From positions 6,268,548-6,332,547 of the forward strand of contig JBNZDD010013721.1 in NCBI GenBank assembly GCA_050575255.1: 64,000 nucleotides of DNA, in the 5' to 3' direction. The notes below the pieces were generated by a model, which had not been told where the DNA came from, did no database searches, and worked only from the letters and a program-made list of their open reading frames with translations. This document shows positions 2,058-51,735 of the stretch, in pieces; the stretch's first letter is position 1, and every line of letters begins with the position of its first letter. The position numbers and the translations under genes were made by a program. The DNA is from Harriotta raleighana (taxonomy: Eukaryota).

Positions 2058-2215
2058 CTATATAGCCTCGTGCTCTGACCCAGAAGTGTTGTTTCCCCTC
2101 CAAGGCTACATGTCTGTAGTATTCTGGTGGATTGATGGGTTTAATTTCGATGGGCACCTCCTCAGCCAATAATTTGGTCAGACCGATTTTATACTTCTCG
2201 GTTAAGGCTGGATCT
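2058..2215 (-). CDS. ACOT8: Acyl-CoA thioesterase 8, coding exon 4 (further exons lie beyond the left edge)
   Basis: DPALTEKYKIGLTKLLAEEVPIEIKPINPPEYYRHVALEGKQHFWVRARGYIG; AG acceptor at 2216-2217, GTAAG donor at 2057; phase matches exon 3. Confidence 0.92.
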
Positions 2216-2931
2216 CTGTTTTTTTTTAAAAAAAACACACAAAGAAATGAAAATTCTGAATGACAATTTATTGAAATTGCATAATCTGTCTGCTACAGAT
2301 TTATATCTGCATTGCATTTATTTTTTAAAAAATCCCACTACAGCAATTCAGTCAAAAAACTGCTGAAGTCAGAATCATCATTAAATGGCCATCAAATCCA
2401 CAATTCTAGTGATAGATTTGTAACTAACAATAATAATAACAATAATTCTTGCATTTCACAAAGCATCTTTCCATACTGAAACATCTAAAAAGTAATTCAT
2501 TAACTGCAACTGTGTATGAATGCGGCAGCCAATTTGGGCAGAGAAGTGCCTCAACACCCATGAAGAGAATGATCAATTTTATCTGAGAAATTTTAACAAC
2601 AGGTTCAATAACAATCAGAAATAATAACTGTTTCATTTTTATATCTTGCTTTCCACGTCATCTAGACATTTCAAAACACTAAACAGTGTTACTCTTAAAG
2701 TGAATTGAACATATATTTGTGGGTGAAATGCAGCAGCCAATTGCGCACAGCAGTATCCGATAAACAATCGTGAAGAGTGACCATTTTGTTTTCAGGATTA
2801 TTCACCGGAAATGTGATTCTAAGATTCTAGAATTGATTGGGAGAAGATTGGTGTAAGGTCGTTTGTTTGCGTGTTTAAGGCAGGATTTTAGTTTATGGCA
2901 CAGTCATAGGTCTATAGGTCAATTTTCATAC

Positions 2932-3157
2932 CTCAAGTACTTCTGAATTAGTTCCTCTTGGGTCAGTAACTCGTCAGGGGAAGGGACTACAGGCATGGTA
3001 AACTGGTGATGAATTGGACTCTCCATTTTCCTCTGGAATGAAGATTGGCAGATCAGGATTGGATTCCCATGCTGAATGGCCTTCACAGAACGGACAGAAA
3101 AGCTTTTCCCATCTCGGATGCGATCTACTTGGTACAGGACTGGCACTTTGGGGTCAC
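2932..3157 (-). CDS. ACOT8: Acyl-CoA thioesterase 8, coding exon 3
   Basis: GDPKVPVLYQVDRIRDGKSFSVRSVKAIQHGNPILICQSSFQ, a TesB/ACOT8 hot-dog fold motif; AG/GT boundaries; 226 nt with consistent phases. Confidence 0.95.
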
Positions 3158-3922
3158 CTACAACAACAAAGTAGATTGTAAACGAGAGGGTTAAATGATG
3201 TTCATTGGACAACAGCAAAATACAACTGGTTTGACACATTTCCATCTTTACCTATTGAATTCTACAAACTTCATAAGCAAAAATAATATGTAATATCCTA
3301 TTAAGGAGACACCCAGTTTAGAATGATGTTTAATAACCCAAAGCCTTTAAATTAAGTTTATTTTTGTACTCAGAAACTAGGCCCATCAATGCTATACACC
3401 AGCAAAGCCTGTACTGTGACGAGGTCTAAAAGTTTTTTTAAAAACAATCCAAATGAAACCAAATGAGAAGAATTGGTTAGGCAACACTGAAAGCCAATAA
3501 GGTTTATGAAAAAGGGAGGAAATGAGGAAGAAAGGAGTTGCACAGATTTGAGGTGCTGACAAGAAGTTGGGATTTCAACACAATCAAGCAACTGCAGAAG
3601 GATGCGGATAATTTATTTATATCGTGGGAGGAAGAGAAACAAATCTTCCTTCAGATCACACCCCCTGAAGTGCATCAAAATAATCTCCTCCAGGCTTTTC
3701 AAATTGCCCCCTTTCCAAATCCTCCAAATTTGAAAGGAACTATCTAAATATAAATTAATACAGTACACTGAATTAATAAGGTTGTCAGGTTGTAAGTAAA
3801 ATCAGGACCATTTTGCCACATGCAAAAAAACTACGATATGTACACTGTGGTTCCACAAACCTTGACCTTTGGGATGGCAGAGAAGGAAAAACACTAACGG
3901 ATCAGCCACTTGTCTGTCTTAC

Positions 3923-4059
3923 CTGCTCGTACAAAGTAACAATGCAATGAATGCGCATAAATATTCTCAGATACAGACATTGCAGCTGCTACCAGGGCCT
4001 GTCCAACAATCTGACCCCCAAATAACATGCGACTCCTTGGGACCCAATGATGCGTTCCT
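3923..4059 (-). CDS. ACOT8: Acyl-CoA thioesterase 8, coding exon 2
   Basis: Hand translation GTHHWVPRSRMLFGGQIVGQALVAAAMSVSENIYAHSLHCYFVRAG, with TesB signatures FGGQ..GQAL and HSLH.YF; tttatag acceptor, gtaag donor. Confidence 0.95.
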
Positions 4060-4509
4060 CTATAAAATATAAACGTATAAAGAGTGTATACTGAGGCTCA
4101 GAAAGAAATTGAATAAAACAACTTTTAAAGAAACCTCAAGTAACTTGTTACCACGCGACCCCCCAATATACCTTAGATTTCACTTGCAAGATCAAGGACA
4201 CTGGTACCTATAATTAGCCTCATGTTCAATTAACAGTTTTTTTAAGCTTGCCCTCCTTTGTGACAAATCAAATTTTCCCTTTTCACTTAATCCTTCATTG
4301 AATACATTAAACATTACTTGCATCAGAGATCCCATTATTTGCTTTAAGGTTTCATGTGATTTGACAGACTGGACAGCAATCCATTTTATAATATGGCCAT
4401 TCTTTAATGTTGAAACAAACACAAAATTGCACTTGTAAAGCTCCTTTCATGTTGGGAGGATGTCCCAAGGCACTGGTCAGACAGTAAGGAACAGAATCAG
4501 TTGGAGGTA

Positions 4510-5349
4510 CAGTAAAACCTTTGTTATCCGACACCCTCAGGACTTGACCGGTGTCGATTAATCAAATATGCCGGATAAATGTGTGGCAAGTTGCCAAAAA
4601 TCCAACAAAAAATTTATTTATTTTAAAACATCCCACATTAATAATAGACTAAATAACAAAATATTGTATGGATACTTACCAAAAAGGAATTCCAGCAAAC
4701 GGTAAAATGATCAGTAATAAAGCATTCCAGCGCTTGGTAAGTTTAACAAGTGAGCATGCGCAAAGTGAGCATACTGCGAGTATCATCTCCCCCATTCTTG
4801 CCTGTCTCTATTGGCTCCCCATCACCCAGAGGATCCAATTTAAGATCCTGGTCCTCACATATAAAGCCCTCCACAACCCCGCCCTACATCCGTGACCTCC
4901 TATCCCTTACCAACCTGCCCACCCTCTCCGCTCAGCAGACTCTGGCCTGCTCTATGTCCCTCGACCCACCCACCTCGACCCATTGGTGGGCAAGCCTTCA
5001 GTCACTCTGCCACCAACCTCTGGAACTCCATCCCGAAGACCCACCACTTTGAACCCTCCCTGGCCTCCTTCAAGTCTCGCTTCAAGACTCTCCTCTTCGA
5101 TGGTCCCATCAGCGACTCCTCCACCCACCCCCCCACCTGTCCTCCCTAGCTCGGGTCTGAAGCAGTAGCCTGTCCAGCGCCTTGGGACATCCTCCTGATG
5201 TGAAAGGCGCTATACAAATAGAATTTTGTTGTTGTGTCCCAGATGCCTACTGTATGAGATCCGGTTGCTGAAATTGTGAATTGTTTTGGGAGATACCGGT
5301 TGGTTGAGAATGCTGTTTCGTTGGGTATTGGATAAACAAGGTTTTATTG
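4510..5349. mobile_element. MITE copy 2 (same family as 288-671), interrupted by an L2 fragment
   Basis: TA|CAGTAAAACCTTTGTTATCC ... GGATAAACAAGGTTTTATTG|TA terminal inverted repeats with TA target site. Confidence 0.7.
4781..5237 (+). mobile_element. L2-clade LINE 3' fragment nested in the MITE
   Basis: ISPILACLYWLPITQRIQFKILVLTYKALH and GGQAFSHSATNLWNSIP, then the L2 3' end and a (TTG)n tail. Confidence 0.85.
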
Positions 5350-6747
5350 TAATAGGTTTTTTTCTCAAAAGCTTTGGAATGCACACACTAACACCAAGTA
5401 TTAATATCAATTAGAACCAATCTGTTTGGGGAATAGTAGCTTTAAAAATCCATGTAAAATAGAAGGATTCCATTCAATTAATGGGAGAATGAATCAAACA
5501 ACTGCTGCTATGAATACTGCTGTAATATATACAATGAGTTTGTGAAACTTTATCTTGGAAAGTCTGAAAAGGGTGCAGTAACACAGACCAAATAACTCCA
5601 TAAAAACCATACATTGATTGAAGTAAACTTCAATGAATTTACAAACACCACAATACACACCGTGGAGGGGAAATACTCCCCTTATATTTAATTTAGATAT
5701 AACACACTCTTTCTTCCTAAAATTACAGTATGTTTTCAGGGCTGTCTGATGCTGCTCAAATGTGTTGAAGTCAGCAGAGGAAAAGGGTAAGCATGCACCT
5801 TCAATACATAAACAAGGATTAGAGACAGACTCACTTGAAAGTGCGCTGATTGCTGTGCTCATTGCTGTGGAAACAGTGGTTGAAAAAGTGAGTGCAAGTT
5901 AAATCCTATCAGCCTGCATTGGGATTTTGGTGGACACCAACGTTTGGCTGGACGGACAATGACCTCCTGAAGGAATACGTAGAGAAAGAGCACAGGACAA
6001 TCTGGTTATACCTGCCTCTGTTCAAGGACGGCAAGGTCCCACAAGTGTAGAAAACCCATGTCAAACTATCCTCTATTACAGATCCAAACACCTGGGGCAG
6101 GTCGGGGGATGTCTGGAGTATTCTGGAGGCGGACTCACAATGGCACATCTATTTGCCAAGGCCCCTCACAAGAGGACCCGATGCTGAGTAAGATTGGTAC
6201 ACAATGTTGGACTTGGAACTCGAACATCAAGGTAGCTCGCACAGCATTTGCTGTCCTGTAAAGATCCTTCCATCGCACCAAGCACCTCATTGAGGATTTG
6301 GGGGCAACAGCTTCTGCCAAGGAGTTACCTGTAGTCCAACTTCATGAACAGGCGCTTGGAGTCCATCTTGATTGGCTCGCTGAGAGATAAGCAGCTGCTG
6401 CTTAAGCTTTGCACCTCCAACTAGTTGAAGCACCATCACTCAATGCGAGCTGTAGGATGGAAGATGGTGGCAATGCCCTTACGAGTTTCAAGCTGAGCTA
6501 TTTTGCCCACCAGGAAACTGGTTGAGTACCTGGCACCTGACATCCATCTAGTGAGGGCTCCAAGCTTTGTTTGTAGGATGTCAAATAGTAACTCTCCTTC
6601 TTCTTGGGGAAAATGGTGGGTGGGTGGGGAGAGAGTGGCTTAAAAGTGACATACATGTCATCATCACTATTATATTCAGCTGGTGGCGGGGTCAGGGTCA
6701 GGAGGATAGGGTCAGAGGGAAGGGGGCGGCAGGGTCAGTGTCAGGGT

Positions 6748-6779
<32 letters not shown>

Positions 6780-6830
6780 NAGGGTCCGGTTGGGAGTGTG
6801 GGGCAGGGGACAGGCCGAGGCAGGACCCAC

Positions 6831-7057
6831 CTGTACAAGTCCAGGTCCAGCCGCTCCAGGTTCAGGACGCTGGTCACCAACACGCTGTGCAGGTCCGCAT
6901 TCCGGTTGGATTTGCTGCTGCAGCCGCTGGCGGAGAGGACGGCCTCGTCTCTCGGTATCTCTGAGGAACTCTTCCTGGGGACAGAGCTCTGAGGGGAGGA
7001 GGAGACGCCTTTGCTGGACTCCGGCGGCTGCTTCTTCCCTCGGCTGGAAGCCGCCAT
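6831..7057 (-). CDS. ACOT8: Acyl-CoA thioesterase 8, coding exon 1
   Basis: ATG at 7057 (MAASSRGKK...DLHSVLVTSVLNLERLDLDLYR), then a GTGGGT donor; the LVTSVLNLE motif is typical of the ACOT8 N-terminus. Confidence 0.9.
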
Positions 7058-7260
7058 TTTACCGGCAATTCCCCGATCACGTGACGCGGCCGCTGTGGGC
7101 CCGCCTTTCACAGGGGCGGGTAGGACCCGCCTACTTTCCGGCTCCACCCCCCGCTACAATGTGGGTCAGCCCCGGGCTGATGAGATCAACGGCGTGAGTA
7201 CTCTGAGTGACGGCCAAGCCGACCAATCACAAGGCGAAATGGGCTGAGTGACAGGTAGTC
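7058..7260 (-). promoter_or_regulatory. CpG-rich ACOT8 promoter / 5' UTR region
   Basis: CpG-dense sequence directly upstream of the ATG with a TCACGTGA E-box (7077-7084), a GGGGCGGG GC box (~7113) and a CCAAT (~7223). Confidence 0.55.
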
Positions 7261-7554
7261 TATCCTATCAGATAGCGCAGTCTCTGAGTGACAGCTGGGA
7301 TTTCAGTGTAGTTATACATATGCCACAAACATGATTATAAACACAGAAGTTTTTAAAAATATATATCTGTATACAGTATATACTGTGTATAACAATCATA
7401 TAAAGCTCCTTTAAGGGTCACATTGGGATGCAGATGTGATGCCACTGGAGATGGAAATGTCCAAGAGTGCACATTGTATGATATTGCTCATCAGTTCTGA
7501 TTATTTTGAGGATCATATCCATTATCCAGGTCAACAATACTGGTTGTTTTCCCT

Positions 7555-7557
<3 letters not shown>

Positions 7558-7592
<35 letters not shown>
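7558..7592. repeat. (TA)n microsatellite
   Basis: Direct inspection. Confidence 0.95.
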
Positions 7593-8525
7593 GAGAGTTA
7601 CTGCACAGGGACAGTCCATTCAGCTCAAGTTTACCACCATCTATTTCCATTAAATGATTTGTTTCCCCATAGTATTTATGTACCATTATGTGGCTTTGCA
7701 CCTTCCATCTCTCACTCCAACTAGTTCCCAATATCCTCTACCTTGGGCCATTGCTGTCCTCTTTCCCAGAGTCATGCCTGCTGAGTCCATTTTCCTTTGC
7801 CCAGTTACACTGGATGAAACCAAGTTGGATGGCTGGTCTATGCAGAGTTAGCTAAAATTTATACTGTACCATGGAATCAGTAAAACATAGCAATTAGCTT
7901 ACTGACCTCCAGGCACTTTAAAGATAACAACTTGCATTTATTTAGAGAGCATCTCTTCACATGGGGTAGCATCCTGGAATTATTGCAATATACTGTACTA
8001 AGAAGTACAACACATTTATAACTTGAAAAATGTAGAGAAGCAAAATAATGCAAAGAAACCAACAAAGTATTATTCTATCAAATAATCTAATAACAATTTA
8101 ATGTAATCAGCACAAATCAAAACTGCTCGAAGACAATGATAATAAGCACCAGTGTTTTGTGGATGTAAACGCTCAACCAAAAGCCCTGAAATTAATGACC
8201 AATTTTATTCGTCTGGGAAAAATTCCTTATTCTTTCCTAATAACAATGAAAACACACAGTCTTTTCTTTGATCACATTATTTCTTGTACCAATAGCAAGT
8301 CAAGCTTTTCAGTTATATGGAGTAAATGCCTAGTTAAATAAATGTAATTCAATATCAAATACATATCGTAAGGGGTTGGATTTCATATGCTCATGTTGTT
8401 ACAAAAATAATCTTCATGCAGTTTGTTATACACAATGTACTTCAAATAGATTGCCTATGAAAGCCTTTGAAATCACCTGTACTGTAGTTTCATATTTTCT
8501 ACACATTACTTTGCCTGGCAGGAAT

Positions 8526-8641
8526 TCACTCATATTTGCAGTAATCCTTTAACAATTCCGGTAGTTTTAACCAGTCGATGGCTAGTCTGTGTATGATGTG
8601 TTTCTGAATAACCTGGCGACACAAAGTCTGTAGAGATGGAA
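8526..8641 (-). CDS. NEURL2: Neuralized E3 ubiquitin ligase 2 (Ozz), coding exon 2, SOCS box
   Basis: Hand translation (F)PSLQTLCRQVIQKHIIHRLAIDWLKLPELLKDYCKYE-stop is a SOCS box; ctgcag acceptor; phase 1 matches exon 1. Confidence 0.93.
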
Positions 8642-9489
8642 CTGCAGCCAGAAAAAAAGAGCAAAAGTGAAATTGTTACTTAAGCATTCATATCTGAGAG
8701 ATTGCACATATATTGTTAGGTTTGCAGGAAAGATGGGAAATCTGAAAAATTACTCGACAACAGCCGTATGTCTGCTAAGGAACAACAATAATTTTACATT
8801 GATTTAGCACCTATCACAGAAGAAGGATGCCTCAAATCGTTTCACACAGTTGCCTGGCAGGGTGAGATCAGTGTAGGATAGATAAGAAAGGAAGAGGGAT
8901 AGAAACATTACTAAGAGCATGGTAAAAAAATAATTATGAGCTTTAAAGGTGGGAGAAAAGGTTACAGTAGCAGGTTGAGTTGCATTACTTTAACAATGTC
9001 TGCTCTTTATGGGAAGCTACTCAACTGAATTTTTACCATGTAGCTGCCTAATTCCCTTTTAATAATAATAATAGTAATCCTTGCATTTGATCTAGCGCCT
9101 TATCACAACTTTGGGAAATCTCAAAGCACTTCACAGATACACTTCAAAGAGAATTGATACATTATATGGGCGAAACGCAGAAGCCAATCACACCTAGCAG
9201 TGACCCACAAACAGTTGTGGATTGAAGTGCCCAATAAATTATTACTATTATTTTCTAGACAGGCTTCAGCAAAGATCCACAAGTTGCTGAAGGCAACAGG
9301 TTGCTATGACTGTCCAGTTCCATCTTGAAAACTCTCTGGGTTAACCTGTTGCGGAGAATGTGGAACTGTGATTAAAGCCAGCAATTATTATTCCAATTAT
9401 GGAATTAATTCAATATTCCAAGTTAAATTTGTTGTAAAGTTGTTAAACTGTTGTAATTAATAATCCTTGCATCCTTTTATAGTGCCTGT

Positions 9490-9790
9490 CAACAAGAACA
9501 ACAAATTGCAATTATATAGCACCCAAAACATCAGAAGAACATCCTAAAGCGCTGGACAGTCAAAGTTTATACACAAGCTGGGGGTTAGATTCAGAGGAGA
9601 GGGACCTAAACAGTGTAAGAGGATAAGTTAACTGAAGGCGCACTGAAAAAGGAAAGTTTTGAGATAGATCTGGAAGGAGGTGAGAGGCGGAGGTGCTCGG
9701 GGATGAAGTTCCAGAGGGTGGATGCAGAAAGGCTGAAGGCCCGACTGTTTATAGCGGGCAGGGCGCGTGATGCAATGCCTGCTAAGGAGA
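9490..9790 (-). mobile_element. Degenerate L2 3' fragment in the NEURL2 intron
   Basis: RAFSLSASTLWNFIPEHLRLSP and an L2-type 3' end. Confidence 0.65.
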
Positions 9791-10173
9791 GGGAAGAGGT
9801 GAGTTTGTAGGGTTTAAAGCTAAAGGATATTGATGCTGTCAGTGCTGGAGGTGAAAAGTTGGGAACCAAGCAATGTCTCACAAACAGCCATGAAATTAAT
9901 CAGCAATTGTATTTGGAGGATTGTTGGCCATAACACCGGGAGAGAGAAACTTCCCTCTCTTTCAGTAGGCCCATGAAATCTTTCACATTCACCTGAATGG
10001 GAACTTGCTGACAGGAAATATAAATTTGTTCACAGAATTTGCCTCCACCATATCCCTTTGTAACCTATTCCTGATTTTTGTTAGTAAACAAATCAAGCTG
10101 AAAGGTTGAGTAAAATAATTGATTTTCCCCGTTTTTGGTCAGCGGAGTTTCTGATACATGCAGAAATACTTAC

Positions 10174-10861
10174 AGCCATACTCCACTTGGATAATCCTTA
10201 CACTCTTAGTAGAAGCAAACACATCCACGACTGCATAAAGTGGCTGGTTAATGGGGATTCCTCTTGCACAGGGACCCATGTCCTCTCCATTGATGACAAT
10301 GTGCATGTCTCCCACTCCAGCACTTTTGATGATGTATAGAACCCCAACCCTGCTTCTCCTGGCTGTCGCTGGAAGTATATTACTCTTATATAGTTCATCT
10401 AAGATATGACTGTACCTCCCTGGTCTACTTCTACCCACTAGCTTATCCTTTGGGATCTTACATTCTCCAATTTTCAGATAGGCTTCCATGGGAGAAAAGG
10501 ATGATCTTGGAGGAAGATTTGGGTCATCCTCATCAGTGGAGACTTTATTATGATTCCTTGTTATGGCAAAAACCCAGCTGTTCCCCAAATTTACCAGGTC
10601 AGGGAGAGAGTATTCAGGAACAATCTCCAGTTTCCTTGGATTGAGCGATGTTAATCCAATCCTAAGGTGCCCACACCATCCCAGTTCTTTTTCTTCAATT
10701 TCCACAAGAAAAATTGTAGAAGGTTCCAAAGGGTCTTGACTGAAACACACCCCATTGGCAAAACTATCGACCCTGCTGGCTTGGGTCCCTGACTCATCCA
10801 GCCTTACGTTGGTTCCATGAATGCAGTGGAAACGCATACAGGGATCAGCTACTGCAGCCAT
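10174..10861 (-). CDS. NEURL2: Neuralized E3 ubiquitin ligase 2 (Ozz), coding exon 1, NHR domain
   Basis: MAAVADPCMRFHCIHGTNVRLDESGTQASRVDSFANGVCFSQDPL..EKELGWCGHLRIGLT..GDMHIVINGEDMGPCARGIP..LYAVVDVFASTKSVRI; GTAAGT donor at 10173; spliced CDS 804 nt (267 aa). Confidence 0.95.
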
Positions 10862-12002
10862 TTCTTCAATGTGGAATGCCTCGGCTATTTTTAACCACAG
10901 TGTTTTGTGTGACAGGTCAAATCTGACAGCTGGTATGGAAAGGCTGATATGACTCAAGTCATATCTAAAAAAGTCTGGTGCTTTAGTTCCGTGTGTCCTA
11001 GTGCCAGTCAGTGGAGCTGCCTCAAAGTGCAAAGAAAGTACATTGCTTTCCCAAGTCAGGCCTAAGTTAAATTTGGGTTATAACATAAATGTTTGCATTA
11101 CTATTAAGGTAAACATTTATTTATTGATAATTAATTATTACCCACACCTTTATGTGTTGCTTTTTTGTGCATACTATTAGAACCAACCAAAGTTACAACA
11201 CAGATCAAGACTATTTGGCAAAACCTTTCTTTGCTGACAATGATAATAATTATTAATAATTATTAACCAAATATACTGATTATTATTTATTGATAAAACA
11301 TACGTTTGTCTCGTTGATTTAGGTGTATTTAATGATGAAACAACAACAAAATTACACTTTTGAAGTCGGGAGGACGTCCCAAGAAAGCTAAGGAACAGCA
11401 TTTGTCAGAGGTCATTCATAAAGTCACTTAGCACATTGAGAAGAGCAGTAATATACTCTCTACAAAATGAATTTGGAAAATATGTAATACGGCAAAGACT
11501 GACTTTTTTTTATTAAACACCTGCAGCGTGAGAGGAAATCAATCTCAGCAGTTATAAAGTGATTTTCATTTGCTCATCAAACAAAAACAGTTAGACTGCT
11601 TTGTGTTTCCAGTTTGGAATTAACGCAAACGCTTTGCGTGTGTGTGGGTTGTGGGGGGCGGGGGGGATTCAGTGAACTATTGTCAAACTCAAACAAATAT
11701 TGAGTTGATGTTTTATTTCCTTGTTTCACGCTGATTTTTGGAGAATTCGACTCATCCCACGTACACATAGAAATTCCAGAGAAAAAATTGTTGGAATTGG
11801 AAAATGGGCACTCTCTCTCTGGAGGCAATACATTCCTACTTACCTTATTTCACCCCAAAGTATTAGGCGCAGATTGACAAGATCCGAGGCTGGGGGAGCT
11901 CACCTGGAAGTATTGGTTGGAGTTCGAGAGAGAAAAAACGCTAGCACAGCTTCAGAGTCAGTCAGACAGACAGTCAGTCAGTGAAGCGAGGTGGGGGGAT
12001 AT

Positions 12003-13034
12003 TTAATATTCACTGGACATTTCTGTGGAGGAATCATCCTGGGATTCACCATCGGAGTCCAGGCTGAAACACGACCCATCGTTGTGTTTCACGTAGGAAG
12101 CCGGTGGCCCCTCACAGAGAGAGACTTTAGCGAAGTCAGGACACGGGCTAGAAAAAAACTGGATGCGTTTTCCGCGTGTTTTCCCCCTCTGGGATGATGC
12201 TGTGCTACAGGTGTCTGACATGTCCAGGATGCTGGAGCTGAGGCAATCATCAGTGCTCAGTGGGCTTTCGTTGAAGCTGGAATTGAGATCTGTAGAGGAA
12301 ACGCAAGGGACTGGCTTCAGCAACTTCATGTCTGTTTGGGGGCATGTTTGTGGCTGGAGACAGTCTGGTGGTAGAGGGTAGGAGCGGAGTGACGGAGGAT
12401 AAAAGCGGAGTGGAGGAGGAGAGGAGCTGCGCGTTGGAGAAGTAGAGGGGCGGCGTGATGGAGTCGAGGAGCGGAGGAGTGATGGTGGAGAGGGGTCGCC
12501 TGCTGGAGAGAGGGAGTCTGCTGGAGGGAGGGAGTCTGCTGGAGGGAGGGAGTCTGCTGGAGGGAGGGAGTCTGCTGGAGGGCTGGGTGGTTTGGGAGGA
12601 TCCTTCGGAGCCGATTTGCTTTTGATTTTCAATATCCGATCCTTGGTGAATTTGAAGACCACTGAGCTGGCGCCCACCCCGGGAGGGAGATCAAACTCGT
12701 TAGAAAAACCACGGATGCTGAAGCTGGTCGCCCCGTTTAGACCTCTGCGCTGCACCAAGTGTTCCCCGAACACTTTCATTTTCCCGTCCTTGATCTTCAG
12801 AAACACCTCCTCCGGCTTCATGCATCCCAGCTGCAAACAGTAGGAAAACTTGCCCTTGCAAGTGGCCTGTGGGTTCTGGGGTGGATCTTGGAGAGGTGGG
12901 TTTGGCGTTGAGGTCTGCGGTGGGTCTTGAGGAGGGACTGCTTGTGTCTTTGGTGGCTTCCTTGGGGTAGGAGTCAGTGATTGGTCTTGCGTGGGAACCT
13001 GCGGTGGGTTTTGCATTCCTTTCTGCCTACCCAT
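12003..13034 (-). CDS. Array gene 1: ODF1/HSPB10-like alpha-crystallin-domain protein with Pro-rich N-arm and Pro/Ser-rich tail (343 aa from first ATG)
   Basis: ACD-like KFSYCLQLGCMKPEEVFLKIKDGKMKVFGEH..RGFSNEFDLPPGVGASSVVFKFTKDRILKIK; uninterrupted ORF; shared upstream module. Confidence 0.8.
   Translation of the reverse strand: MGRQKGMQNPPQVPTQDQSLTPTPRKPPKTQAVPPQDPPQTSTPNPPLQDPPQNPQATCKGKFSYCLQLGCMKPEEVFLKIKDGKMKVFGEHLVQRRGLNGATSFSIRGFSNEFDLPPGVGASSVVFKFTKDRILKIKSKSAPKDPPKPPSPPADSLPPADSLPPADSLPPADSLSPAGDPSPPSLLRSSTPSRRPSTSPTRSSSPPPLRFYPPSLRSYPLPPDCLQPQTCPQTDMKLLKPVPCVSSTDLNSSFNESPLSTDDCLSSSILDMSDTCSTASSQRGKTRGKRIQFFSSPCPDFAKVSLCEGPPASYVKHNDGSCFSLDSDGESQDDSSTEMSSEY
12501..12582 (-). repeat. 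18-nt coding tandem repeat (PPADSL)x4-5
   Basis: GGAGTCTGCTGGAGGGAG repeated. Confidence 0.9.
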
Positions 13035-13130
13035 TAAAAAGTGAGGACAAAAACACAATCATTTATGCAACGATTCGTATTTTCCTCGCCTTTTGCTCCC
13101 CCACTGAACGCAAATCACGGGTTGACCTCT

Positions 13131-13240
13131 CTGAAAAGGCCAAGCAAGGTCAGACGGGGCAAGTGTATTTCCTTACGCCACAGGTTTGTAAGCGTGAGAT
13201 CACACTCGTCCCCTACACCTCAGCGATGAAAATGACTACA
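13131..13240 (-). promoter_or_regulatory. Shared upstream module of the array (gene 1 copy)
   Basis: Minus strand GTCATTTTCATCGCTGAGGTG..GTGTGATCTCACGCTTACAAACCTGTGGCGTAAGG..TTTTCAG; the same ordered boxes recur upstream of most array genes. Confidence 0.6.
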
Positions 13241-15551: not shown

Positions 15552-16403
15552 TCAGAACAGTCGTGGGCAACAACAGAGCGGGAAATTTTCAAACGAGCCC
15601 TTGTTTTTTTTCTTCCTGACCCTTTTGGGGTCAGGTTTGCGTTTCCTGGGGGCAGGTTTCGGTCGGGTCCCACGTGTCTGGGCTGCGGGTTTCGAAGTGG
15701 CGTACTGGTCTCCAGTGGAGGTGTTGGACGACTTGCTTGTACCAGTGGATTCCGGTGGACTGGACGCGATGGATAATTTGCTTGTGTCAGTCGTGACAAG
15801 ACGCAGGGAGCAGGCGGAAGACTTTTTGGACTCGCTGGTTTCAGTCGGAGTGCAGCTGAGGGAACTCTTGGACTCAGAGCTGCAGTCCGAGCTGGACACG
15901 CGTCTCCTGCTCGGCTGTTTGCTCATGGACCTCCCTTCCGCGTGTAAATTGGATCTTCTGGGCGAAGGGCGCCTGAAATCCGAGGAACGATCGTCGGATT
16001 CGTAGTTCTTGGCTTTGAAGGGGGGTAACTTCAGTCTGGGGTCCGACGGCGGGGATCTTCTCGACACAGCACTCCGGGAGCGGCCACTTGGCTTGGACAG
16101 CTGCAGCTGCTGGACCTCAGCCGTCTTCGGCTCCGTCTTGCAGGTGGAGTAATCGGCTTCGATCAGCAGCGTGTGTTTCTCGCACACGGTCAGACTCACG
16201 GTTCTCGGGTCCACTTCCCGGGGAAGGCTGAAGGTGTTGGAGAAGCCGTGGTAATTGCGCCTGAGCATGCCATCCTCCTCCACCGTCATTTCAACCCGTT
16301 CGCCAGACACGTTCACTGTGTGGTCCTTGATGTTGCCTTTTATATTCTCTGGCAAAATATCCCCCAGGTTTATACGGACGGAAAACTTCGGGCGAGGCTT
16401 CAT
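15552..16403 (-). CDS. Array gene 2: alpha-crystallin-domain protein with Ser/Arg/Lys-rich tail ending CCCPRLF (start uncertain)
   Basis: KFSVRINLGDILPENIKGNIKDHTVNVSGERVE..DGMLRRNYHGFSNTFSLPREVDPRTVSLTVCEKHTLLIEA. Confidence 0.82.
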   Translation of the reverse strand: MKPRPKFSVRINLGDILPENIKGNIKDHTVNVSGERVEMTVEEDGMLRRNYHGFSNTFSLPREVDPRTVSLTVCEKHTLLIEADYSTCKTEPKTAEVQQLQLSKPSGRSRSAVSRRSPPSDPRLKLPPFKAKNYESDDRSSDFRRPSPRRSNLHAEGRSMSKQPSRRRVSSSDCSSESKSSLSCTPTETSESKKSSACSLRLVTTDTSKLSIASSPPESTGTSKSSNTSTGDQYATSKPAAQTRGTRPKPAPRKRKPDPKRVRKKKNKGSFENFPLCCCPRLF

Positions 16404-16530: not shown

Positions 16531-16606
16531 TCTGAAAAACGTCAGTGCATTTGCTTACGCAGCGGATTTGTGAGCGCTTTGTGCACCTCTATGATGAAAA
16601 TGACTA
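16531..16606 (-). promoter_or_regulatory. Shared upstream module (gene 2 copy)
   Basis: AGTCATTTTCATCATAGAGGTG..GCTCACAAATCCGCTGCGTAAGCAAATG..TTTTTCAGAAA on the minus strand. Confidence 0.6.
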
Positions 16607-17979: not shown

Positions 17980-18582
17980 CTAGACTGACCCACAGCACAG
18001 AGGACAACACGGCTTTGGGGCTGGTGATACTGGCTGTAGTTTAACCCAACTGCTATTGGGTTCACAGGCCGCCAAAGGGCCAGGTTTGCGCCTGTTATCT
18101 CGGCTGTCGCCCTTTGACTTGGGACCACCTCCTCCTCCTTTCTTATTATCCCTCGAGTTCTGCGGCGACGAGTCTCTCGCTGATTTGCGAATCTCAATGG
18201 GATTTTTGTGAGTCCTCGGCGGCTCCTGAAACTGTGTCTTGGAGCCAGCGTTCTTCTTGTTGGGCATTCGTCCAGCTGAATATTTGTCCCCTTGGATGAG
18301 GATGGTGTCATCGTTGGGGACGGTCAGGATCAGGGAATCTGGATCCACGTCGTCGGGAAGGTTAAACTCGTTGGAGAAACCGTGAAAGTTGTAGCTGATC
18401 TCTCCATTCTTGGTCTTGATCTCATCCACGTGTTGGCCAAACACGTTGACCCGACTGTCCCGGACTGTGGCGTTCACTTTGTGTGGGGATTTCGAATTGC
18501 GCAAATTGACTGCGACATTGTACTTCGGTGGGTGGGCGAAGGAAGCAGAGTGTAGTTTCTCTCGAGACCTCGGTTTTGACAT
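17980..18582 (-). CDS. Array gene 3: alpha-crystallin-domain protein, 200 aa, basic tail ending CCPLCCGSV
   Basis: KYNVAVNLRNSKSPHKVNATVRDSRVNVFGQHVDE..SYNFHGFSNEFNLPDDVDPDSLILTVPNDDTILIQG. Confidence 0.85.
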   Translation of the reverse strand: MSKPRSREKLHSASFAHPPKYNVAVNLRNSKSPHKVNATVRDSRVNVFGQHVDEIKTKNGEISYNFHGFSNEFNLPDDVDPDSLILTVPNDDTILIQGDKYSAGRMPNKKNAGSKTQFQEPPRTHKNPIEIRKSARDSSPQNSRDNKKGGGGGPKSKGDSRDNRRKPGPLAACEPNSSWVKLQPVSPAPKPCCPLCCGSV

Positions 18583-20820: not shown

Positions 20821-21690
20821 CAACAACAACAACAACAAAATTACACTTGTATAGCACCTTTCAAATCAGGAGGACGTCTCAAAGTGCTGAACAGTCAGGT
20901 CGGGTCTCGAGCGGGGGGGTGGGGGGCGGGGGCGCGGGGGTACGGGGAGGGGGAAGGAAAGCAGGAGAGGGGGAAGAGTTGGGGGTGAGCTGAAGATGTG
21001 GTCAAAGAAGGTAATTGAGACGGGCCTTGAAGGAGGAAAGGGAGGAAGCAAGGCAGAGGGACTGCAGGATGGAGTTCCAAAGTGTGGGGACAGAGAGGCT
21101 GAAAGCCCGGCACTGATGGTTGGGCATTTAGGGCGGTGGATGCTGAACAGGCCTGAATCTGCTGAACGGAGAATGCGGGCAGGCTGATAGGGAGACAGCA
21201 GGTCCGAGAGATAGATGGGGGCAAGGCTGTGAATGGCCGTGAAGGTGTGGACGAGGATCTTATATTTGATCTTCTGAGGGATGGGGAGCCACTGGAGTCA
21301 GGCGAGGGTGGGGGTGATATAGTCTCCAGAGTGCGGGAGAGTACATGAGCTGCAGAATTCTGAATGATCTGCAGCCTGTGAAGGGAGGAGTTGGGAAGGC
21401 CAATGAGGAGAGAGTTCCCATAGTCAAGCCTAGAAGTGATAAAGGCATGATTAAGGGTCTCGGCGGCATGGTCCGGCGGCGGCATCTCGAAGTAGTGGTG
21501 GAGTCTGGCAATATTGCGGAGGAGGTGGAAGGCTGTGCTGGTTAGGGAGTGGATGTGGGGGAGGAAGGATAGTTCTGGGTCGAACAAGATGCCCAGATTC
21601 CTGATTGGCTTTGAGAGGTGGAGAGAGCAGCCTTGGACGCTGATGGTTTCAGCGCTTAAGGTGCGGAGGCACTGAATTGAGCCCAATAGC
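20821..21690 (-). mobile_element. L2-clade LINE 3' fragment
   Basis: IRNLGILFDPELSF..FHLLRNIARL..AETLNHAFITSRLDYGNSLLIGLP..LQIIQNSAA (L2 ORF2), the L2 3' end and a (TTG)n tail. Confidence 0.9.
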
Positions 21691-22071
21691 GTACAAACAT
21701 GTTTAACATCTCATCTGAAAGAGTGCATGGCCATTTTGCTGAGATTTGAATTCCAAATGACTTATTTGAGAGTGAATATGTGAGGATAATAAATCACTTC
21801 TTATGTGTTTTAAAACACACTTTCAACCAAAAAGCCCAGTCTGTTTTTAATCATTAACTGCCAGTAGCTCTATACTTTTTCCCAATACTACATGATTAAT
21901 TGCTTAGTAAGTTGTGATTAGAGATCCATACAGTAGGTAATTATACTATACTTCTCTTTTTCCATTGGCTAATATAATATTGAATATTATCACACATTTA
22001 AACAAATTAATATCTTCAAGTTCCTGATTCTCACTTTTAAAGCAAGCCCTCCACAGTCTTGCTCCATCCTC

Positions 22072-23969: not shown

Positions 23970-26900
23970 TCAGTGTAACTCAGAGCAGCGGCACATCTTG
24001 GTATTTGATGACACAGGTGTTCTTTTCTTGTTGCAAATGCATTGCAGCAGAAAACGTCCCTGGGAGCAACCATTTTCCTCATTGTCAGTGTCACATTCCT
24101 CTGGCATAGATTCACTGGCTTCAAACTTCTCTTTTGCATGAGCTTCAGGATCTTGGTTGGAGGTTTTTAGAAAAGTCATTGGGCGTTTTGGTTTGGATAT
24201 GGGTATGGGTCTACACTTGCAATGTATTCTTTGTGGGATTTTTGGTCTCCCTCGGCAATGGACTTTTGTATGATTTTGGGAAGTAGTTTCAGGAAGATAT
24301 TGACTGTTTTGCCTGAGGGATTTCACAGCAACTTGCGCACCCCCAGCTAGGGTATTCGAGGTATGCTGCACACCTTCAGGGAGAGTTTTCATGAAATCTT
24401 GCTTGCTTTGACTATGTTGTTGCCTTACATTTTCTACATCTTGAGATTGGATCGGGAGCTGCGCATGTTGGGAAGGTAAATCTCCATTACCTCGTCTGCT
24501 GTGAGAAGTGGACTGTGGGGCATCTTCCCCAACTTCATAGGCAGTTCCCAAAGGTCCTTGGCTTTGTCTTCCAACTTTTCTGCCATATTCTGATTCATGC
24601 AATCGCATTTCTGGGACATTTTGTCCATTTTGGTTAAATGATTCCAGAGAACTTTGTCTGCTGTGGGGTTGAGAGACTGGGGCATAACCCCTGTTTACAT
24701 CTCTGTTTTCTAAGTGATTTTGGCTTTGTCTGCTGATTCTCCTACCATTTTCTTGAGCTTGAGGTTTCATTTCCAGGACACCTTGCACATCCTGAACTCG
24801 TCTGCTAACGGATCGAGACAGTAGGTCCTGATTCTTATAAACAGTTCGTATATCCAAAGGATGTTGATTTGGTCTGATGAGATTTCTGCTATGTTTTGAT
24901 CCTTGGGATTGCATTGCTTGGATATCTTGCAAATTTGGGATGTTCAATTGATGAGTACCTCGACTGTTGTGGGATAGAGAACTTAGGTCATATTCCCCAG
25001 CTACAGATTTTGGTTGTGGTGGATCTTGCCTTTTGAAATTCTTGCCAATTTCCTGCATTTCTTGGACACTTTGCCCATTTTGATCGTATACTTCCCGTCT
25101 GCTGGGAAATTGAGTTATGTGGGCACGATCCTCATAAACAATAAGTGTGTCCAAGGGATCTTGCCTTTGTCTGCTGAGATTTCTGCTGTTTTTTGGTACT
25201 GAAGGTTGCATTTCTCGCACATCTTGCTCAGGTTGGAAGTATGATTCCTGAGTATTTTGTCTGCTGTGTGGCAGATAAATTAGGTCATGTTCCCCAACTA
25301 TAGGTTTAGCTGGTATTAACACTTGGTTTTGACTGCTGTCGTTTCCACCATTTTCTGGAAACTGGGGATGTGTTCCTAGAATATTTTGGATGGGTATTTC
25401 CTCAGATTTTTGTTTACTGTGGGATTGATACACTAGAGCATATTTCTTACCCAAATTACTGGTTTGGGAAGGACCTTGGCTTTGTCTAAGTGCATTTAAA
25501 CCAGTTTGTGATGCTTCATGTTTGGATTCTGGAATACATTCCCAGTATTCGAAAGGAAATTCTTGGGAAACCCATCTGCTGGGGGGTTCAATTACAAAGT
25601 CATATTCCCAATCGATAGGACAGGATTCTGTGAAATCTTCTTTTAGTTCTTCGCCTTGCATCTTGACTTTTTTGCTGCTTTGTGGGGTTGGGGTTTCTGA
25701 TAGATCTTGCTGATATTGATTAGAAACTGCCTGAGAAACTCGCCTGCTTTGTGATGACGACTTTCTGGAGTGCTGTTTATCTTCTGTGTTAGTGTGTCCA
25801 GGATCTTGGCTTTTTCTGTGAGCTTTCCTTGCATTTTGTGAGACTTGGGATTGCGTTCCTGAAATAACTTTTGCAACTTTAGAAGCAGATTCCTGAGAAA
25901 CCCGTCTGCTTTGCGAAGAGGGCTTTCGGGCATAATGCTTATCTTCAGAGAACATTTGCACCAGATTTTGACTGTTTTGTTTTGGGATTTTACTATCGAG
26001 TGGAGTTTCTGCTTGAGTTTCTGGCAGATTCTGTCGATATTGCAAAGAACTTTCCTGGGAATTGTGTCGGCTTTGCAATTTCGGGCCATATTGCTTTTCT
26101 TCAAGATGATTATCTTGGCTGTTTGGCTTCTTGATTTCCCTGACATGCTGTGGAACAGGACATGGCAAACCTTCATCATCTTGTGAAGGGAAGGCTGTTT
26201 GAGAACAGGACTTTGTAGTATATTGTTTATGTTTAGAGTTGGATTTGGGGGGATCTTGGCCATCTTGGCTGATAACACTCTTGACATATTGTGGGGATTG
26301 GGAGTAAGCTTCTGGAGGATCTTGCTTGGATTGGGAGGGACCATGCATGGCAGTTTGTTTATCTTGAAAATCTCTCAGATGTGCTTTTAGCAGAACTTGA
26401 CAATTTTGGAGATGGAAGTTTCTGGCATGTTGTGGATCTTTGCTATCAAATGCTGAGTCATAGGAACACAGGAACAGAGGAATATTAGAAATTAAATATT
26501 GCCCATATTGGGTTATATATTCAGATGCACTTGGTTCAACCCGAGGATGGTATTCTGGATTAAGTTCCCTGTGTCTAGAGTGAGTTTCCAACTGATTTTG
26601 GCTGTGTCTGTTTCTAGAATGTTGTGGGATATGGCCGTGGGGTTCTGGGAAATCTTGGTCATATTTGGAATGATATTCCTGGGACCCTCGTGTGCTATGA
26701 GGATCAGACTTTTGAGCATATCGTTCATCATTAAATTGGTTCTTTAAGGCATCCTGGCTGTAGATTTTTCTGAAATTTTGTGGGTCTTGGGATTCTAAGT
26801 CATGGTGTTTATATCCATAATATAATTTCCGAGGAATTTGCCTGCTGTGGGGATGGACTCTTGAAGCATATTGTTTATTTTCAGAGTGAATTCCTATGAA

Positions 26901-29900
26901 ATCTTGGCTGTTTCTCTGAACATCTCCATATTGTGGGTCTTGGCTTTCTGGTAGATCATGCCCATCTTGAGTAGGTAATTCCTGGGAACTTTCATGTTTA
27001 TTTTTAGTCTTATTTTGGTTTTCCTCTGTGGAACGATTTGGAAGATAATTCTGTTGCTGGTGGATGGATGACAAGTTCTCGTCGTGCTCTTCAAAAGAGT
27101 TTGGCTCCATGTAAATAGGCAAGTCCTGATTTTCAGGCTCAGGACTACGTGGCAGGGATTCAATGTAAGGTTTTGAAATTTGGGATTCTTTTGGAGTCAA
27201 TTGAAGAGCAGATTTTGTGATCACATTAGCACTTTCAGATGGAGATTCTATGGGTCGAAGTTGTGTTGTTTCCTTACTTTCACTGGAGATGATATTCTTG
27301 GATAGTTTGTTTTGAGGTGAAGGACCATTCTTTTGTTTCTCATTAACCAGGCTTTCCTCTGAGGAAATATTTGAAATGTCTTGTGGTTTATTACTCTGCT
27401 GAAAGTTTTCATTGTATACCTCAAAGGGGGTTGGCTTCATGGAAATAGGCAGGTCTCGTTTTTCAGGTTCAGGGCTGCTTGGTGGGGACTGACTTTCAGA
27501 GCTTGAAATTGGGGATACTTCAGGACTGACTGGAAGAGATCTTTTGTGTAGGCCGTCATTCCCAATTGAAGATTTTGCAGATCCTGGTGTTTCACTGTCT
27601 TTCCTGTTCAAGATAGACTTGGAAAGTTTGGGCTCCTTTGGGAGGGATTGAATTTCCTTTTGTTTGTGGAGATCTGAGGTTTCCTCTGAAGAAAGATTTG
27701 GAATATTGCCTTGTTGCTCATCAGTTAGTGACAAGTTGTCAGTATGTTCTTCAGACAAACTTGGCTCCATGACAACTGGTAGGTTTTGAGGACCTTGGCC
27801 TTCCTCCAAAGTCATATTTGTTTCGTTGTTTTGTTGATCATTGAAGTTTTCATCATGTCCCTCAAAGGAACGTAACTCCATGGAAATAGGTAGGTCCTGG
27901 TTTGGGGGCTCATGGCTTCCTGGTGAGGATTCAGTACCATGGTTTAAAACTTGGGATACTTTAGGCATCAAGGAAAATGATTTTTTACCAATGCTATCAC
28001 TTTCTGTTGAGGATTTTGGAGGTTTGAATTGTGGTGTTTCTTTGTCTTTTCCGTTGAAGATATTCTTGGAACCTGTGGAGCTTTTTTGGAGAGAGGGAAT
28101 TTTCTTTTGCTCATCAAGTACTGGTTCTTCCTCTTCCTCTGATGAAAGATTTGGAACATTGTCTTGTTGCTCAATTTTGGGTTGCACGTTTTCAGCAGGT
28201 TCATCAAAAGTATTTGGTTCAATGGAATTAGACAATTCTTCGTTTGGAGGCTCAGGGTTTCCTGGTGAGGATTCAGTACCTTGGTTTAAAACTTGGAATA
28301 CTTGAGAAGTCAAGGAAGATGATTTAGTGCCAATGCTATCACTTTTTGTTGAAGATTTTGCAAGTGTTTCTTTGTTTTTCTTGTTGAAGAGTTTCTTAAC
28401 CAGTTTAGGTTTCTTTTGGGCTGAGTGGATTTTCTTTTGCTTGCTGAGATCTGAGCCTTTCTCTGAGGAAATACTTGAACGGTTGTTTTGGTCATCTTCA
28501 GCGAGTGGTAAGTTTTCATCATGTTTCATCAAAGAAATTGGCGCTATGGAAATAGGTTGGTCCTGTGTTTCAGGCTCTGGGATAAGTCTGTGTGATTCAG
28601 TGTCATGGTTTGAATCTTGGGAATCTTTACCAGTCAAGGGCTGAAGGATAGATCTCAGCTCTTCATTTTCAAGTGCAGATTTTGCAGATTTAACTTTTGT
28701 AGTTTCTTTGTCTTTCCCATTGAAGATATTCTTGGAACCTGTGGAACTTTTTTCGAGAGAGGAAGTTTTCTTTTGCTCGTTAAGTACTGGGTCTTCCTCT
28801 TCCTCTGATGAAAGATTTGGAGCATTATCTTGTTGCTCACTTTTGGGTTGTATGTTTTCAGCAGGTTCATCAAAAGTATTTGGTTCAATGGAATCATTCA
28901 GGTCCTTGTTTGGAGGCTCAGGGTTTCCTGGTGAGGATTCAGTACCATGGTTTATATCTTGGAATACTTGAGAAGTCAAGGAAGATGATTTAGTGGCAAT
29001 GCTATCACTTTTTGTTAAAGATTTTGCAGGTGTTTCTTTGCTTTTCTTGTTGAAGAGGTTCTTAACCAGTTTAGGTTTCTTTTGGGATGAGCGGATTTTC
29101 TTTTGCTTGCTGAGATCTGAGCCTTTTTCTGAGGAAATACTTGAACGGTTGTTTTGGTCATCTTCAGTAGGTGGTAAGTTTTCATCATGTTTCATCAATG
29201 AAATTGGCGTTACGGAAATAGGTTGGTCCTGTGTTTCATGCTCTGGGATAAGTCTGTGTGATTCGGTGTCATGGTTTGAATCTTGGGAATCTTTACCAGT
29301 CAAGGGCTGAAGTATAGATCTCAGCTCTTCATTTTCAAGTGAAGAGTTTGCAGATTTAACTTTTGCAGTTTCTTTGTCTTTCCCATTGAAGATATTCTTG
29401 GAACCCGTGGAGCTTTTTTGGATTGAGGGGATTTTCTTTTGCTCATCAAGTACTGGGCCTTCCTCTTCCTCTGATGAAAGATTAGGAACATTGCCTTGTT
29501 GCTCGCTTTTTGGTTCCATGTTTTCAGCAGGTTCCTCAAAAGCATTTGGTTCCATGGAATCAGGAAGGTCCTGGTTTGGGGGCTCGGGGCTTCCTGGTGA
29601 GGATTCAGTACCATGGTTTAAAACTTGGAATACGTTAGAAGTCAGGTAAGATGATTGTGTGCCAATGCTATCTTTCTCTGTTGAAGATTTTGCTGGTTTT
29701 AATTGTGTTTGTTTGCTTGTCCTGTTGAAGAGGTTCTTAGCCAGTTTGGGTTTCTTTTGGGATGATGGAATTTTCTTTTGCCTGAGATCTGTGCCTTCCA
29801 CTGAAGAATTTTCCTGACTTGTTTGTTCCTTGACGGAAAAAAATTCGTCAGATTTCTTAGAAAATGTTATTGATTTATGGTTTTCTTTCTGAGGTTCATT

Positions 29901-33025: not shown

Positions 33026-33541
33026 ATGGATCCCCTGGGTTCCCGACCACAACCGGATGGCAGGACCGGCCCCAGCGATCCCCCGAAGTTTTCCGTCTTC
33101 GTCAACCTGGGGAATGTTTCTCCCGAGCAGGTAGTGGTGAAGATCAAGGACAGAACAATGACCATCTCTGGGGAACATGTGGAGAAGGTGCGGGGCGCCG
33201 GCGGGGTGGCGAAATACAGTTTCCACGGCTTCTCCAACGAGTTTGACCTGCCCGCCGGCGTGGAGTTCGATTCCCTGGTCTTCACGGTCCTGGACCACGA
33301 CACGATGAAGATTGAAGTGGAGCAACCTCAACCCCGGGAGCAACGTTCAAACCCCGAAGTGCAGCCGGGCGCCTCCGTGCGTTTCACTCCCAAGTCATCG
33401 GTCTTTACCCCCGTGAGATGTTCCAGCCAGAGGAAGGTCCACTTGGCAGTCAAACGCCAGAGCCAGAAAGGCCACAGTCATCGACAAGACCAGCCTCATC
33501 GGACCAGGTCGATCTCCCCCAACCATGGCTCCAGGAATTGA
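33026..33541 (+). CDS. Array gene 5: shortest alpha-crystallin-domain member (171 aa from ATG)
   Basis: KFSVFVNLGNVSPEQVVVKIKDRTMTISGEHVEK..KYSFHGFSNEFDLPAGVEFDSLVFTVLDHDTMKIE. Confidence 0.88.
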   Translation: MDPLGSRPQPDGRTGPSDPPKFSVFVNLGNVSPEQVVVKIKDRTMTISGEHVEKVRGAGGVAKYSFHGFSNEFDLPAGVEFDSLVFTVLDHDTMKIEVEQPQPREQRSNPEVQPGASVRFTPKSSVFTPVRCSSQRKVHLAVKRQSQKGHSHRQDQPHRTRSISPNHGSRN

Positions 33542-35655: not shown

Positions 35656-35734
35656 TTCTTTGCGTGCTGTAACACCGACAGACTGATAAAAACAACTGTG
35701 CCAAGTGCGCTCTCAGGCAAACAAACCTTGGTTT

Positions 35735-41950: not shown

Positions 41951-42306
41951 CATCTGCCGTACGTGTCTCCGTTGTGATCAACTTGATGGGACTCTTGTGA
42001 ATGATGATGGTAAGATTTTTTTCAGCGACGGAGCCTTCCATATATCTCCTCCCGTTTGGGACGTCGGTGACTCTCGGATAGAAGCGGAAGAAAAGAGGAC
42101 AGCAACTAAAGGCGGCAGCGACTCGTGAAGAACTCGCTTTGGGTCTTCGCGACTCTCCTCTTGGCGAAGATCACACACGGGAGTGGGGTTAGGGAGGGGC
42201 TGGGGGGCGAGGAGGAAGGGAAAAGAAACGTGGCAACCGCTGAGGGGAGCTGAGGATAACCTCGAAGAGAGAAGATTTGAGAGCTGATCATGCCCTCGGT
42301 GCTGGC

Positions 42307-51669: not shown

Positions 51670-51735
51670 CGTGTGTGACCTCACGTTTTACGTACTTGTA
51701 ACCCAACGCGTCGCTTTCAGAAAGTCATGAAACCT
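51670..51735 (+). promoter_or_regulatory. Shared upstream module (gene 9 copy)
   Basis: GTGTGTGACCTCACGTTTTACGTACTTGTAAC..TTTCAGAAAGTCATGAAACCT. Confidence 0.55.

Follow-up and report, generated by a model that had tools for sequence, protein, structure and literature searches.

The 64,000-nucleotide stretch of Harriotta raleighana DNA analysed here (contig JBNZDD010013721.1, positions 6,268,548 to 6,332,547; hereafter the window) carries an array of small heat-shock protein (sHSP) genes beside NEURL2 and ACOT8. We conclude that this array is a genuine cluster of genes found in cartilaginous fishes, forming an sHSP subfamily that had not been named before, and that it is probably the sister of ODF1 (HSPB10). 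ODF1 is the odd member of the HSPB family, with most work done on the mammalian protein; having a sister lineage in every major group of cartilaginous fishes would date it to the first jawed vertebrates or earlier. The array also adds a whole subfamily to the vertebrate sHSP repertoire, and its genes are mislabelled in public annotations. Full-text literature searches, with subscription papers outside their reach, returned no description of the cluster, and the main text of the catshark genome paper has no mention of hspb or odf1, its section 15 being on gamma-crystallins only (PMC11979771).

The array consists of 11 uninterrupted, intronless open reading frames (ORFs) encoding an alpha-crystallin domain (ACD), spread over ~12003-63802 and reaching the window end. 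All of them passed the gathering score of Pfam HSP20 (PF00011), at 21.2-39 bits against a cut-off of 20.8, while scanning the complete window with profiles in six frames gave no twelfth ACD and nothing beyond the 11 above E 0.1. The ACD lies near the N-terminus, beginning within ~55 amino acids (aa) of the first Met, and is followed by a tail of ~70 to >2000 residues that is rich in Ser, Pro and Thr and in several members ends in a Cys cluster. Eight of the 11 proteins measure 171-343 aa; g4 (2247 aa), g10 (982 aa) and g8 (>700 aa) are larger. The size range given for sHSPs is 14-43 kDa (PMC8913478).

A gene cluster kept beside NEURL2 in chimaera, sharks and rays

Two profile searches recovered 28 array-type proteins outside the window. 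For 17 of these a species can be assigned, by name or through clustering with a named protein, and every one comes from a shark or ray. As no bony-vertebrate member occurs among these named matches, any loss would map to bony vertebrates broadly and would probably be older than mammals, to which the first-pass annotation had assigned it. Of the 11 window genes, 10 cluster in the 64-row tree with sequences of other species, and 9 do so with a named elasmobranch protein (support 87-100); the nine include g6, whose group contains such proteins. This places the origin of g1-g6, g8, g9, g11 and g12 before the split of chimaeras and elasmobranchs ~410-420 million years ago. The tails carry conserved motifs specific to each set of orthologues, such as Cys-rich C-termini (g2, g3) and a twin PG[TS]xC motif (g8, g11, g12).

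Position is conserved as well. Using accession order and same-size contigs as proxies for co-location, we found an array member and NEURL2 on one contig in all seven species in which both could be placed (Chiloscyllium punctatum, Scyliorhinus torazame, S. canicula, Heterodontus, Leucoraja, Amblyraja and Narcine). The locus tags of C. punctatum follow the window order, with NEURL2 at 3384, g1 at 3383, g3 at 3381, g5 at 3379 and a fused g8+g9 model at 3377, and in S. canicula the g2 orthologue XP_038658964 and NEURL2 (XP_038658965) are consecutive. In the older S. torazame assembly g12, g9 and g6 are numbered 3306, 3307 and 3310. Some placements speak against a conserved position: g11/g12 of C. 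punctatum and g12, g9 and g6 of S. torazame, both from older fragmented assemblies, lie on scaffolds other than that of NEURL2, which may be explained by assembly fragmentation. A tandem cluster of at least ten diversified members was present in the common ancestor of chimaera, sharks and rays and has been kept beside NEURL2/ACOT8. RefSeq names for array orthologues include mucin-4-like, EF-hand calcium-binding protein 5-like and MYB120-like, others being uncharacterized. Several isoforms are annotated for the Narcine and Leucoraja models, suggesting transcript support.

These data bear directly on whether the array could be a recent, species-specific amplification or transposition, an assembly artefact or a pile of pseudogenes. 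The window does contain many single-N joins with duplicated flanks, which would fit such an origin. Identity among the paralogues is only 22-50% in their ACDs, however, and they have their own orthologues, conserved tail motifs and conserved order in sharks and rays. Orthology and synteny thus refute recent transposition or amplification, and we regard an explanation of this whole kind as extremely improbable. The idea that the array was amplified in this species is overturned by the same results, as amplification predates the chimaera/elasmobranch split and members have orthologues in other cartilaginous fishes; that relatives might carry it at unrelated loci, raised beforehand as a way to disprove an old locus, was not what we found.

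Relationship to ODF1 and origin of the locus

The array ACDs are likely the sister lineage of ODF1, and the ODF1 lineage would accordingly be at least as old as the jawed vertebrates. As evidenced by profile scores, the best single domains outside the array belong to three frog proteins (71.7, 62.7 and 59.2 bits), two of them annotated as ODF1 (Discoglossus and Pelodytes) and one a hypothetical protein of Ascaphus; KAM4689526 and KAM8966829 are among the three. Shark HSP30 reached 60.5 bits and the solved domains of HSPB1/4/5/6/8 at most 53.7. The ODF1 label is backed by the ESM Atlas, where the Discoglossus protein is nearest to two ODF1 clusters (0.91 and 0.90). With ODF1 represented by these frog sequences only, each of the six maximum-likelihood trees favoured array+ODF1 over other groupings, in line with the sister relation that the first-pass annotation had put forward. 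Support was 65/85 with 64 rows, 90/77 with 40 rows (after removal of 24 rows that were redundant or long) and 100/95 with 57 rows, and ultrafast bootstrap (UFBoot) values for the 57 rows were 96-98 under the simpler models LG, JTT and WAG. HSP30 grouped instead with hagfish and amphioxus proteins (97/86, 64 rows), and array+HSP30 appeared in none of 300 bootstrap trees of the 40-row set. Approximately unbiased (AU) tests marginally rejected the alternatives in four cases (p 0.032-0.045; 57 rows, 0.042).

Diagnostic residues fit this grouping. At the position that we take to be equivalent to R120 of alphaB, Arg occurs in 0 of the 11 window domains and Asn in 8; across the alignment Asn is found in 24 of 40 array rows, 3 of 3 ODF1 rows and 0 of 21 others, of which 16 have Arg. 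The Gly before beta9 is missing from all 43 array and ODF1 rows and present in 18 of 21 others. Two canonical residues have been lost in both array and ODF1. The two also share a divergent ACD with a longer beta6-7 loop, and Cys-rich stretches occur in several array members as well. Canonical HSPB1-8 and alpha-crystallins have the same beta-sandwich fold, but they are only ~20-25% identical to the array, have a shorter beta6-7 loop, keep Arg and Gly and are small.

A confident structure model was obtained for one of the 11 domains. The g5 ACD was modelled with a predicted local distance difference test score (pLDDT) of 85, and its best structural match is the ACD of HSPB6 (Z 9.7, root mean square deviation 2.3 over 77 residues), the top matches all being ACDs. 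In this model the domain folds as a metazoan ACD sandwich with a long beta6+7 strand. Full-length g12, modelled with AlphaFold from six sequences, reached a pLDDT of 35; the ESM Atlas matched it to chordate sHSP clusters only (0.86-0.88). In g11/g12 and the proteins orthologous to them the ACD is followed by an IXI-type [IVL]P[IV] motif, which is absent from g1, g2, g3 and g5.

Still, the array proteins are not ODF1 proper, because they lack its extended N-terminus and mammalian C-X-P tail, both described for ODF1 (PMC8913478). ODF1 is a single gene whose ACD starts at residue 68-94 in frogs, whereas the array has 11 copies beside NEURL2 with the ACD near the start. In keeping with this, the frog ODF1 profile aligns to array ORFs only from its position 59-91 onward. 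The C-X-P count is at most 2 per array ORF and 0-2 in frog ODF1; as the frog protein lacks a C-X-P tail, that tail is not ancestral to ODF1 and seems to have been gained later, in amniotes or mammals.

Several observations weigh against the sister relation. With only 88 alignment columns and fast evolution in both lineages, long-branch attraction is possible, and the trees include neither amniote ODF1 nor HSPB9 nor vertebrate HSPB1-8. The 57-row set was made by removing seven long-branch invertebrate rows after the first tree had been seen. Five AU tests did not reject the alternatives (p 0.06-0.26); with 40 rows, ODF1 placed with HSP30+hagfish+amphioxus gave p 0.165, the array placed with them 0.06 and ODF1 placed with g6 alone 0.227. 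A profile built from the three frog ODF1 sequences gives the array members at most 48 bits, less than shark HSP30 (56) and some invertebrate domains, and frog ODF1 is 28% identical to the HSP30 group compared with 27% to the window domains. The array proteins also lack the long N-terminal region and the C-X-P repeats of ODF1.

These points give some room to a descent of the array from an intronless HSP30/HSPB9-type or other sHSP lineage, perhaps with a stress or somatic role, the grouping with ODF1 then being due to long-branch attraction or to convergent loss of chaperone residues. The longer beta6-7 loop is common to HSP30, ODF1 and array alike, HSP30/HSPB11 genes are likewise intronless and multi-copy in sharks, and HSPB9 is an intronless sHSP. 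Presumably HSP30 genes are also arranged in tandem, and the TCATCA box upstream of array genes, described below, resembles what we take to be a C/EBP-ATF stress element. The AU tests that leave alternatives standing and the preference of the ODF1 profile for HSP30 point the same way. We nevertheless consider such a descent quite unlikely, given the separate HSP30 clade with hagfish and amphioxus, the empty count among the bootstrap trees, and the residues lost in array and ODF1, with Asn favoured at R120 in both. HSP30 keeps the beta8-9 Gly (7/7) and mostly the Arg, has a long N-terminus and an IXI motif and occupies another locus; HSP30C lies on a contig other than that of NEURL2 in all three species where both were placed.

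The array could otherwise be the chondrichthyan ODF1 orthologue itself, moved by translocation, retroposition or duplication of an ACD exon and then expanded without any whole-genome duplication (WGD). This explains the trees equally well, and ODF1 nested beside g6 is not rejected by the AU test. The coding regions of the array members have no introns and open almost directly with the ACD. No separate ODF1-type protein of cartilaginous fishes appeared among the best 150 profile matches, and the frog-ODF1 search gave three matches, its own inputs, among 575 candidates; as the searches missed amniote ODF1 too, a missing shark ODF1 means little. A random landing in a block paralogous to that of ODF1 would moreover be a coincidence, judging by the paralogon described in PMC6585022, and we hold a relocated ODF1 to be somewhat unlikely.

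If the sister relation holds, we slightly favour a split of array and ODF1 by early-vertebrate genome duplication. Human ODF1 is presumably at 8q22 and ACOT8 and NEURL2 at 20q13, as in the first-pass annotation. Its wider pairing of the two regions is corroborated by PMC6585022, which places RIMS2 at 8q22.3 and RIMS4 at 20q13.12, and STK3 at 8q22.2 and STK4 on 20q, within a Hsa 1/2/8/20 paralogon. Because the ODF1 and array blocks appear to be paralogous in human (8q22 and 20q13), WGD appears to be the most likely origin; taken overall, we rate it a little below an even chance. In Pelodytes, ODF1 and NEURL2 are on different contigs (230 and 212 Mb), as an ohnologue model expects. A further point on the other side is that the authors who describe the paralogon dispute its origin by WGD (PMC6585022). 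The split itself predates the radiation of jawed vertebrates, as the array sits beside NEURL2 in chimaera, sharks and rays and frog ODF1 falls outside the array clade, which sets a lower age bound only. An early date for the ODF1 lineage, as first suggested, therefore follows from the tree alone and is independent of WGD. Anti-WGD views of this paralogon are in the minority.

Taken together, an ancient NEURL2-linked cluster sister to ODF1, of WGD origin and encoding structural proteins of spermatids, has in our judgement about an even chance of being correct as a whole. A bolder version is reciprocal retention, in which bony vertebrates kept single-copy ODF1 while cartilaginous fishes retained the 20q13-type copy and, >400 million years ago, expanded it to a battery of 12 genes that are driven by one conserved spermatid promoter module and build the longitudinal columns of the sperm tail. 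We think this distinctly unlikely; if true, shark and amniote sperm accessory fibres would be built from sister proteins.

The shared upstream module and a proposed function

Most array genes are preceded by a similar non-coding module of ~100 nt, delimited by alignment in front of g1 (13130-13240, minus strand). On the sense strand before the ORFs the order of elements is a TCATCA box, a TGAYYTCA octamer, a TTAC-N11-GTAA dyad and TTTCAGAAA. Other copies have their dyad at 16573(-), 18722(-), 30810(-), 32920(+), 37741(+), 41926(+), 46535(+) and 61842(-), and partial copies are found near 51676(+) and 63905(-). Among the 12 upstream regions, the TCATCA box occurs in 9, the octamer in 6, the dyad in 8 and TTTCAGAAA in 7; random stretches of the window gave motif means of 0.7-1.7, and none of 2000 draws was as high. 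In a leave-one-out test with a two-box position weight matrix, 9 of the 12 upstream regions (g1-g6, g7x, g8 and g11) beat all 201 background tiles, whereas those of g9, g10 and g12 did not. An extra copy at 45217 is identical to that of g8 and lies behind an N join; we rejected it as an assembly artefact.

Sharing of such a module would imply selection, because the paralogues separated hundreds of millions of years ago; gene conversion is the alternative. Regarding its activity, a reverse CRE/NR octamer (cAMP-response element/nuclear receptor) is bound by CREM-tau and GCNF and is enriched in testis promoters, ~100-nt fragments of testis promoters suffice for haploid expression, and the enriched CRE-like octamers are CpG-free, all as reported in PMC2853129. 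Two points count against a spermatid element: the module motifs were chosen by eye before the controls were run, and the exact octamer of PMC2853129 occurs only at g9, the others being one-base variants outside the tests reported there. The module is possibly a stress element or a splice-related sequence. A splice-site reading (GTAAG...CAG) is disfavoured, as it would require introns of only 23-46 nt.

From promoter and protein sequence combined we derive a working model that we find somewhat more probable than its opposite, in which array genes are co-expressed in spermatids and encode structural proteins. The module, with its CRE-like sites, would turn the genes on together in post-meiotic spermatids. 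The N-terminal ACD of each protein would act as an assembly or interaction hub, and the long variable Ser/Pro/Thr- or Cys-rich tails would provide structural material, probably cross-linked by disulfides. Array proteins may in this way act like ODF1 in accessory structures of the sperm neck or tail, such as longitudinal columns, rather than as general stress chaperones. Mammalian ODF1 is confined to testis and is required for head-tail linkage in mice (PMC8913478). Elasmobranch flagella have two accessory columns (PMC11856307), and cartilaginous fishes are the first group to show structures at doublets 3 and 8 (PMC11276731), which makes these columns a natural target for array proteins. The cluster thereby offers named candidates for chondrichthyan sperm accessory columns, whose homology with amniote fibres becomes testable, and a module kept across such old paralogues is a compact test of conserved transcription control in spermatids.

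Array members, flanking genes and assembly features

Genes g1-g4 are on the minus strand, g5, g6, g8, g9 and g10 on the plus strand and g11 and g12 again on the minus strand. The first, g1 (12003-13034), encodes 343 aa with a Pro/Ser-rich tail; its orthologue chiPu_0003383 is numbered beside NEURL2 (chiPu_0003384). It is followed by g2 (15552-16403), with a Ser/Arg-rich tail and a terminal Cys cluster common to catshark XP_038658964, and by g3 (17980-18582; 200 aa), which shares its Cys-cluster C-terminus with chiPu_0003381. A single ORF of 2247 aa makes up g4 (23970-30713), where one N-terminal ACD precedes a very long low-complexity tail with long internal repeats; this size is extreme for an sHSP, and its orthologues measure ~450-1110 aa. 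On the plus strand, g5 (33026-33541) encodes 171 aa and is orthologous to chiPu_0003379, while g6 (37875-38894) is the earliest-branching member and carries a 5-residue deletion in the beta6-7 loop, also seen in its shark orthologues.

Between g6 and g8 lies a twelfth long ORF (42244-43998) and within it g7x (42307-43998, plus strand), a Pro/Arg/Cys-rich reading frame of 563 aa that has the shared upstream module in front, no ACD and no Pfam match. It may be an array member whose ACD was lost. In the fused bamboo-shark model chiPu_0003377 the corresponding position is occupied by a stretch without an ACD, whose similarity to g7x is not significant (E 0.07).

The ACD gene g8 (46633-48929, plus strand) runs on in frame as ORF 47235-48929 across an N join that interrupts its reading frame; its 24-aa Cys-containing repeats and the twin PG[TS]xC motif are common to shark and skate orthologues. 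Next come g9 (51823-52488; 221 aa, orthologue scyTo_0003307) and g10 (55350-58298; 982 aa with Pro-rich repeats), both on the plus strand. For g10, the 64-row tree identified no elasmobranch orthologue, grouping it only with one 92%-identical protein; because it lacks both such an orthologue and the upstream module, g10 may be chimaera-specific. PxPxP[RK] motifs, which we take to be SH3-ligand-like, occur five times in the g10 tail and twice in g9. The last two genes, on the minus strand, are g11 (61127-61771; 214 aa), with a conserved Cys/Pro C-terminal region and the orthologue chiPu_0011803, and g12 (63179-63793; 204 aa), whose orthologues chiPu_0011804 and scyTo_0003306 are ~50% identical over ~180 aa.

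To the left of the array, NEURL2 has two coding exons on the minus strand (10861-10175 and 8645-8529; Pfam Neuralized E 2e-32) with its ATG at 10861, and shares 92% identity with its Callorhinchus milii counterpart and at most 79% with elasmobranch proteins, which places the source of the window among the holocephalans. The array starts at the g1 stop (12003), 1,142 bp upstream of this ATG, which confirms the distance of ~1.1 kb and the proximity to ACOT8 noted at first; it then extends well past the interval originally described (2058-13034). The 5' exons of ACOT8, placed by their translations, are at ~6828-7036, 2919-3170 and 2058-2218 on the minus strand, the remaining exons lying left of the window, and Pfam 4HBT_3 matches ORF 2922-3251 (E 3.3e-10). 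The gap between the start of ACOT8 and the end of NEURL2 is only ~1.5 kb (7036-8529), leaving no room for ZSWIM3, ZSWIM1 and SPATA25, which we take to lie between the two genes in human. Human CTSA is presumably head-to-head upstream of NEURL2, the position taken here by the array (11077-64000). Among 124 ORFs scanned with Pfam (122 of the 213 intergenic ORFs of at least 48 aa, plus two others) there was no further gene, although short exons would escape such a scan, and no cathepsin A domain, a weak test of its absence.

Single-N joins with duplicated flanks, for example at 15443, 37380, 37495, 45190, 46239, 46359, 47270 and 53366, are assembly artefacts. LINE-like (long interspersed nuclear element) remnants of reverse-transcriptase C-terminal type were recognized by eye between genes at 982-1452, 4750-5150, 20866-21710 and 35673-37285; those that were scanned gave no Pfam match.

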